The notes beneath the pieces were generated by a model. It worked only from the letters and a program-made list of their open reading frames with translations. It was not told the origin of the DNA and did not search any database. This document shows, piece by piece, positions 50,886-51,029 of a stretch of 64,000 nt of DNA. Source of the stretch: Escherichia phage vB_EcoM_LMP33; sequence record MK482689.1, one strand, 5' to 3'. How positions within the stretch are numbered: the stretch's first letter is position 1; the number at the start of each line of letters is the position of its first letter. Made by a program: the position numbers and the translations under genes.

Positions 50886-51029
50886 AATTATCTTTGTAGA
50901 TAAGTTATTAAGCTTACCTGTGAGTATGCGACCACAAAGGGTGAAAGGGTAAATTCTAGATTTAAACCCAACAAGGCACATCGCTACAGACCTTAAGCAA
51001 GTCTGGGTAGCTTATCTACAAAGATAATT
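50886..51029 (+). repeat. 19-bp perfect inverted repeat (AATTATCTTTGTAGATAAG / CTTATCTACAAAGATAATT) enclosing about 106 nt
   Basis: Arms at 50886-50904 and 51011-51029; interior has a CAGACC..GTCTGG mini-hairpin. Confidence 0.55.

Follow-up and report, generated by a model that had tools for sequence, protein, structure and literature searches.

A 19-bp inverted repeat in a Felixounavirus tRNA operon is the closing stem of a conserved structured RNA beside a Ro60-like gene

The inverted repeat at 50886-51029 is stem P1 of a conserved, structured RNA of about 145 nt on the + strand, in which the helices P1 to P4 form a four-way junction. The window (the whole stretch of 64,000 nt that was analysed) is a Felixounavirus genome of the subfamily Ounavirinae, from a FelixO1-like phage. 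The element represents a structured RNA family not described before, in a phage locus of the Ro60/Y-RNA-like type, and it is a candidate new phage RNA. We regard it as a candidate phage RNA rather than a DNA recombination site because it adjoins Y-RNA-like elements and the gene of a Ro60-like protein. The explanation that we favour as a whole, with a probability of roughly 55%, is that the P1-closed RNA is a noncoding RNA of the tRNA operon which would be released by processing and may be a ligand of the Ro-like protein.

The inverted repeat and the fold of the element

The first-pass annotation had described a perfect 19-bp inverted repeat, which was confirmed. The arms AATTATCTTTGTAGATAAG (50886-50904) and CTTATCTACAAAGATAATT (51011-51029) are perfect 19-nt reverse complements with a spacer of 106 nt. 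They had also been placed correctly, within the tRNA array and between element c2 (50751-50887) and tRNA-Lys(UUU) (51034-51109, + strand; ARAGORN and Rfam). A repeat finder extended the arms to 22 nt with 95% complementarity, and the RNA helix with G.U pairs reached 24 bp (50886-50909 with 51006-51029). The 64-kb window has no second perfect inverted repeat of at least 12 nt with a short spacer. The longest chance repeat in 30 first-order Markov simulations of the window was 15 nt, compared with 19 nt in the real sequence. The 19-bp inverted repeat is not due to chance. The folding energy of the 156-nt RNA was -48.3 kcal/mol, compared with -30.1 ± 3.4 kcal/mol for shuffled sequences (z = -5.4).

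The element has a total length of 144 nt, and P1 closes about 100 nt of it. P1 has no bulge and comprises 19 Watson-Crick pairs and five further pairs, three of them wobbles. Its 5′ strand (AAUUAUCUUUGUAGAUAAG; 50886-50909, +) consists of the perfect arm and of 50905-50909, which may extend the helix by U.G, U-A, A-U, U.G and U.G. Its 3′ strand (51006-51029, +) ends 4 nt (UAAU) on the 5′ side of nucleotide +1 of tRNA-Lys. Three hairpins lie inside P1. P2 (50914-50944, +) is a weakly supported prediction of the minimum free energy fold, and the element alignment gave it no covariation. P3 (50947-50969, +) has the sequence GGGUAAAUUCUAGAUUUAAACCC. P4 (50983-51011, +) has a 5-bp helix CAGAC/GUCUG (50987-50991 with 51001-51005) and a 9-nt loop CUUAAGCAA (50992-51000). 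It can be extended by GCUA/UAGC, which competes with the top of P1.

The region carries no label in GenBank, or the label "hypothetical protein" (bas63_0137 and bas63_0138), or that of a "tRNA-Thr-GGT" of 129-131 nt. No conserved ORF lies over the element, and the open frames differ between alleles and lineages. No reading frame is kept across the alleles, and the small GenBank CDSs over the element are probably spurious. Rfam had no match to the element in three nested ranges, either at the gathering threshold or at E ≤ 10.

Conservation in close and distant relatives

Two Escherichia phages, KhF1 and LMP34, have the region with 100% identity, and it is matched by some 240-250 related GenBank records of the genera Felixounavirus, Mooglevirus and Suspvirus. 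The spacer from tRNA-Asp (50526-50603; ARAGORN and Rfam) to tRNA-Lys was aligned from the three genera, followed by 13 distinct versions of the element. The element was present in every relative aligned. The first-pass annotation had counted a lack of arm conservation in relatives among the findings that would speak against its claim, and the arms were clearly kept.

Across the 13 distinct sequences, the 23 pairs of P1 were paired in 99.7% of cells. Double-sided changes were found at four pairs (UA/CG, CG/UA, CG/GC and GC/UG), and an extra A-U pair of the window is absent from both arms in the other allele, a compensated indel. When the partner strand was slid by 1-3 columns as a control, pairing was 27-45% and there were zero double changes. 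Several A-U pairs of P1 are G.U in relatives. Two U.G pairs are invariant across the 13 sequences and there is one C.A mismatch; the distant contig L047 has one A.C. This polarity of the G.U pairs fits an RNA of the + strand, not a DNA cruciform or a transcript of the - strand. The helix of P4 covaries from G-C to A-U within the subfamily, and the outer helix of P3 covaries at three pairs in allele B. The independent events behind the covariation of P1, P3 and P4 are few, as they come from two alleles, three genera and three distant lineages. More distant relatives were examined because such events were few among the close ones.

The element occurs as two alleles. Allele A is that of the window and is partly shared with L047. 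Some Felixounaviruses and all aligned Moogleviruses and Suspviruses have allele B. The interior (50910-50982) of the two alleles is about 42% identical (window against L003-L008 and L047), but identity in the flanks reaches 100% within a single genus. The phage BPSELC-1 has a module c2 100% identical to that of the window and an element interior with 42% identity. The interior thus behaves like a cassette that was exchanged between conserved arms. The two interior alleles look ancient, and the cassette was apparently exchanged between genera of the Ounavirinae. The core AUUCUAGAUU of P3 is common to both alleles. The loop of P2 has GAGUAUGCG, which is also present in L047, and the related UGAGU is found in allele B and in L048.

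Three distant contigs (L047, L048 and L049) are syntenic with the window, and their upstream protein is 64, 56 and 55% identical, respectively. Each of them has a stem of 20-30 bp around about 100 nt, ending 0-10 nt before tRNA-Lys(UUU). These stems lie at 6280-6421 in L047, where the stem sequence is different, and at about 7248-7403 in L048 and about 7015-7157 in L049, where it is unrelated to that of the window. They are imperfect and have internal loops. Both the size of the interior, about 100 nt, and the layout of four helices are kept, and a hairpin of the P4 type adjoins the 3′ strand in all three. The helix of P4 varies (CAGAC/GUCUG, CAAAC/GUUUG, CAGUC/GACUG, GUUC/GAAC and GAGAC/GUCUC), yet all five lineages keep the loop C-Y-U-W-W-G-C-A-A. 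With a covariance model of the close relatives only, L047 scored 60.3 bits (E = 1e-11) and L048 scored 19.2 bits (E = 0.05). Judged by these alignments, helix P1 and two inner hairpins are maintained in evolution as RNA structure.

The first-pass annotation had also offered a DNA cruciform or recombination site, and a DNA-level element could equally be a homing site, a palindrome bound by a dimeric protein or a miniature inverted-repeat transposable element. The perfection of the 19-bp repeat would suit such an element. Compensatory changes preserve a DNA palindrome as well as an RNA helix, and the interior behaves as an exchangeable cassette within conserved arms. However, nearly all non-Watson-Crick positions of P1 are G.U on the + strand, which the arms tolerate and which are A.C mismatches on the opposite strand. 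The inner hairpins covary, so that the interior has a conserved RNA structure of its own, and the distant versions are imperfect stems. The element is a single copy in the window and was found in none of 5,426 E. coli genomes. The insertion polymorphism that the first-pass annotation had suggested looking for was not observed, as no relative aligned has an empty site, and no flanking direct repeat or target-site duplication is visible. The transposable element was rejected on these grounds, since it has inverted repeats but no target-site duplication, multiple copies or presence/absence polymorphism. We consider a DNA-level element highly improbable.

Operon position and proposed processing

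The array comprises 25 tRNAs (ARAGORN and Rfam). A promoter scan found sigma-70-like sites at 49724, 49815 and 51283 only, and a scan for + strand terminators found none between these sites. Neither a promoter nor a terminator was thus found between 49815 and 51283. These scans place the element within one predicted transcription unit, the first polycistronic tRNA operon, which runs from tRNA-Pro to tRNA-Ile. With no internal promoter-like or + strand terminator-like site, a discrete RNA could arise only by processing. A hidden promoter in the 3′ arm (GATAAT, 6 nt before tRNA-Lys) was rejected, as it has no acceptable -35 box and was not called by the scan. An intrinsic terminator was also rejected, because the stem is A/U-rich and followed by UAAUGG, and no terminator was called on the + strand. 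A literature search found no Felixounavirus transcriptome.

The site at 51283 is strongly promoter-like (TTGACA, 17 nt, TATAGT). On its 3′ side lies a highly structured region of about 300 nt (z = -4.5) with weak matches to tmRNA families.

By the established course of tRNA processing, the element would receive its 3′ end from RNase P cleavage at 51033/51034, which matures the 5′ end of tRNA-Lys. P1 would then lock both termini in a duplex of 19-24 bp with a 4-nt tail (L047 has no tail). PNPase and RNase II act poorly on a 3′ end within a duplex of this length. P1 would for this reason protect the released RNA from 3′ exonucleases and stabilise it in the absence of a terminator. E. coli RNase III cuts perfect A/U-rich duplexes of two helical turns, and such a site needs about 20 bp or more of uninterrupted double-stranded RNA in a longer precursor, which P1 provides. 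As a long A/U-rich duplex, P1 is probably a substrate of RNase III. A cut in P1 would separate the element from the Y-like module c2, whose 3′ end overlaps P1 by 2 nt.

The first-pass annotation was right in part: its reading as an RNA hairpin for processing or stability has support, and its reading as a DNA element does not. The helix is kept by compensatory changes and G.U wobbles, it lies within the tRNA unit and it abuts the RNase P site. The repeat was under-described as a bare hairpin, since it is the closing helix of a four-helix RNA. P1 might instead be purely a processing spacer that sets the Y-like RNAs apart from the tRNA-Lys/Met/Ile block, either as a cleavage site of RNase III or a similar enzyme or by insulating the folding on its two sides, with the enclosed 100 nt inert in trans. 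An A/U-rich duplex of 19-24 bp inside a polycistronic precursor would suit this proposal, similar long stems precede two other tRNA blocks, and the low identity of the interiors of alleles A and B beside flanks of 100% identity points the same way. Yet the interior is constrained. P3 and P4 covary, the 9-nt loop of P4 is kept where the sequence of P1 differs, and the size and layout are conserved as described above. We therefore find it unlikely that P1 is merely a spacer.

The two other long stems lie at 52180-52270 (30 bp, z = -6.5), ending just before tRNA-Leu(UAG) at 52271, and at 51565-51599 (16 bp, z = -5.1), ending just before a tRNA-like gene at 51605. The 3′ ends of both resemble P1 (AAAGAU..UU), and the P1 covariance model picks up the stem at 52180-52270 with 27 bits. 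These stems argue for long-stem leaders as a general means of processing or stabilisation in the array. A 17-nt match at 51589-51605 was rejected as a second copy of the element, being a separate local hairpin of 16 bp that shares only the leader AAAGAUAAUU. The tRNA-like gene (51605-51683) has an Rfam tRNA score of 31.7 bits and was not called by ARAGORN; relatives annotate it as tRNA-Arg(TCT).

An element-type stem lies 0-10 nt on the 5′ side of tRNA-Lys(UUU) in every relative examined, even where the other neighbours differ. This invariable distance in all lineages examined would also be expected of a cis-acting 5′ leader that tunes the rate or fidelity of RNase P maturation or the expression of tRNA-Lys(UUU), for example against host anticodon nucleases. 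Against a cis leader, the other tRNAs in the array have no such leaders, and we know of no precedent for RNase P needing a leader of 145 nt. A comparison of the lineages also showed no covariation of the P4 helix with the tRNA-Lys anticodon stem, so that P4 was rejected as a mimic of the anticodon arm of this tRNA. A leader of this kind is, in our judgement, rather improbable.

Two further features were seen in the operon. The spacer between tRNA-Asn and tRNA-Tyr (50364-50432) has a T-arm-like fragment GGTGCAAGTCC and is about 60 nt longer than in the phages ASO1B and REP5, where it is 9-11 nt. The segment 50604-50661, directly 3′ of tRNA-Asp and before module c1.5, has the hairpins GAGGGCU.../...AGCCCCUC and CCUUAAAGG.../...CCUUUAAAGG, which are conserved in the three genera and in L047.

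The Ro60-like gene, the ACAGCAA modules and known systems

The gene directly upstream of the tRNA/ncRNA operon (48290-49705, +) encodes a Ro60-like protein of 471 aa. The protein has the Pfam domains DUF2828 and DUF7788 and is classed as "RNA-binding protein" in PHROG. When PDB sequences were searched with a profile of the protein family, only weak matches to Ro60/TROVE were obtained (E = 0.14-0.8), and a fold search was therefore needed. The AlphaFold2 model had a pLDDT of 88.7. Its 11 best PDB matches were all full-length matches to Ro60/TROVE proteins, with a query-normalised TM-score of up to 0.64, and included the Ro60 of the Thermus phage phiLo, Xenopus and human Ro60, and Deinococcus Rsr. 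The predicted fold thus matches the Ro60/TROVE ring with a vWA domain. The protein is 97.5% identical to bas63_0130, the ortholog Bas63 gp130. A 2024 preprint (PMC11482910) reports Bas63 gp130 to be like Ro60 and to act against the Ppl defence system, and it speculates that Y RNAs are among the neighbouring "tRNAs". The element lies 1.2 kb downstream of the gene on the same strand.

Four Y-RNA-like modules with the invariant motif ACAGCAA lie between the gene and the element, all on the + strand: c0 (50040-50117) in the tRNA-Glu/tRNA-Met interval, c1 (50206-50276) in the tRNA-Met/tRNA-Asn interval, c1.5 (50662-50743) and c2 (50751-50887). All are built as stem-bulge-stem: a lower helix of 4 bp is separated by a bulge (AGA opposite G) from a helix of 7 bp, after which UUACAGCAA opens a large loop. 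In c1.5 the strands are GAGC(AGA)AGACCAA-AUACAGCAA and UUGGUCU(G)GCUC, and in c2 the stem-bulge-stem is UUAC(AGA)AGACCGU with ACGGUCU(G)GUAA. The lower helix covaries between copies (UUAC/GUAA, UGAC/GUCA and GAGC/GCUC), as does the upper helix (AGACCGU/ACGGUCU compared with AGACCAA/UUGGUCU).

The insert of c2 has a V region, a canonical T arm (50809-50825), a 7-bp acceptor stem capped by an AGAU tetraloop (50826-50843) and a D arm (50846-50860). The capped stem covaries (ACUCGGC/GUCGAGU compared with ACACGUU/GGCGUGU). The order of these parts is the V-T-AS-D layout of the YrlA Y RNA (PMC4201824). The Rfam YrlA model did not match the module at E ≤ 10 in 50740-51035. Parts of c2 are labelled in GenBank as "tRNA-Thr-GGT" or as a hypothetical protein of the minus strand. 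The tRNAscan call "tRNA-Thr-GGT" was rejected, as it combines the genuine T arm with a 5′ half of poor quality. A true permuted tRNA was rejected as well, because ARAGORN did not accept the de-permuted sequence.

The modules were searched for elsewhere with a pattern of a 7-bp helix of any sequence, NN-ACAGCAA, an insert of 27-105 nt and the complementary strand, usually followed by G. Near homologous genes the pattern was found 23 times on the gene strand and zero times on the opposite strand, with 0.25 expected from shuffles. Modules flank homologous DUF2828 genes in seven further lineages sampled, and were located in the contigs L036, L037 and L041-L048. The phages concerned include metagenomic ones and those of Klebsiella, Vibrio, Campylobacter, Mycobacterium, Listeria and Staphylococcus. 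The strict pattern had no match in L049. In L048 no ACAGCAA module adjoins the element, so that the link between element and modules is there positional at the operon level only. Copies with an insert of about 100 nt were matched by the Rfam YrlA model with 39.6 bits (E = 2e-5) in a Klebsiella phage (L041) and 37.7 bits (E = 8e-5) in a mycobacteriophage (L044), both short of the gathering score (69). For a P100-like Listeria phage, a study (PMC12282133) reports RNAs of high abundance and without annotation on the upstream side of the Rsr-like gene and proposes them as Y RNAs. The ACAGCAA modules appear to be a class of Y-like phage RNAs not described before.

Two of these phages showed further features. 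In the Klebsiella phage FBKp34 (L041), the D arm and anticodon arm of a 114-nt "tRNA-Asp" (5003-5116) are separated by an inserted hairpin and then UUACAGCA, so that the module signature lies inside a tRNA. The Listeria phage LMTA-34 (L045) has a match to ROOL at 1428-1979, with 88.5 bits against a gathering score of 99.1. About 1 kb downstream of this match comes the Ro-like gene with three ACAGCAA modules, and there is a downstream gene for an RtcB-type ligase.

Once released, the RNA may serve as one more ligand of the Ro60-like phage protein, which it would bind through hairpin P4 and whose role in RNA metabolism or anti-defence it would share. The loop of P4 partially matches the ACAGCAA signature (AGCAA; UGCAA in L049), with a helix directly before it, and a Y RNA has the same general shape, in which a long terminal stem surrounds a structured interior. 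We regard this ligand role as possible, with the odds against it. A structured and conserved RNA of no known family could also be an independent trans-acting RNA, such as an sRNA or a decoy for a nuclease or defence system, unrelated to the Ro-like protein and released by tRNA punctuation. The two ancient alleles with swapped interiors, exchanged between genera, are in keeping with this possibility, and the exchange suggests diversifying or host-specific selection. However, no target or partner could be identified, and every lineage found to have the element also has a Ro-like gene linked to it. We judge such an independent RNA improbable, slightly more so than a cis-acting leader. The wider picture would be a hitherto undescribed class of Y RNAs in FelixO1-like phages and in many other phage families with a Ro60-like protein of the DUF2828 type, defined by a short helix followed by ACAGCAA and released by tRNA punctuation in the Ounavirinae. 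The element would be its fifth, long-stem member and bind gp130 through P4, the resulting RNP would counter Ppl, and the alleles would stem from an arms race with factors of the host. We offer this combined model as a speculative one, with the odds against it.

The analysis also corrects the annotation of the region, with structured RNAs in place of small hypothetical proteins and a "tRNA-Thr". Concrete candidates with coordinates are available as partners of gp130, namely the long-stem RNA and the four ACAGCAA modules, of which c2 is YrlA-like, and the ligands and action of the phage Ro60-like protein become directly testable. The element itself is a more modest gain, a new and well-supported structured RNA family, and the surrounding ACAGCAA modules are more notable.

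The locus was compared with known systems. Known Y RNAs of bacteria and phages include YrlA and YrlB (Chen et al. 2014, PMC4201824) and Yrl1/2 of the Thermus phage phiLo (PMC12135203). As with Y RNA/YrlA (RF02553), the element lies on the same strand as a gene of the Ro60 fold and within about 1.2 kb of it, its ends are paired in a long stem around a structured interior, its size falls in the range of 80-150 nt, and the locus has several different RNAs from one precursor, whose processing is here inferred. The likeness to YrlA itself belongs to c2, with its V-T-AS-D order and the 7-bp capped stem, the feature that makes M. smegmatis YrlA a substrate of RNase P. The element (50886-51029) has neither a T nor a D arm, such arms being in the adjacent c2, and lacks the Ro-binding motif GNCGAAN0-1G (CGAA), whereas the modules have C-AGAAG in the bulged stem. 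RF02553 had no match at E ≤ 10 on 50740-51035 (296 nt) or 50550-51950. The partner protein here is of the DUF2828/DUF7788 type and not Pfam TROVE, the module signature is ACAGCAA after a 7-bp helix, and the RNAs are interleaved with real tRNAs. Because it has no CGAA-type motif, no tRNA-like arms and no match to the YrlA model, the element was not filed as a Y RNA. ROOL and GOLLD are also structured noncoding RNAs adjoining phage tRNA arrays, but they are 500-800 nt long and have their own Rfam models, which had zero matches in the window.

In the RNase III stems of rRNA operons and of the early transcripts of phage T7, sequences on both sides of a functional RNA form a long duplex in a polycistronic precursor with tRNAs, and cleavage frees the enclosed RNA. 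Many natural RNase III sites have internal loops, whereas the stem in the window is perfect and encloses only about 100 nt. The tRNA cluster of phage T4, in which to our knowledge no Ro60-like gene lies beside species 1 and 2 (rnaC and rnaD), offers a further parallel: these two are small stable RNAs that are co-transcribed with tRNAs and freed by the tRNA-processing enzymes.
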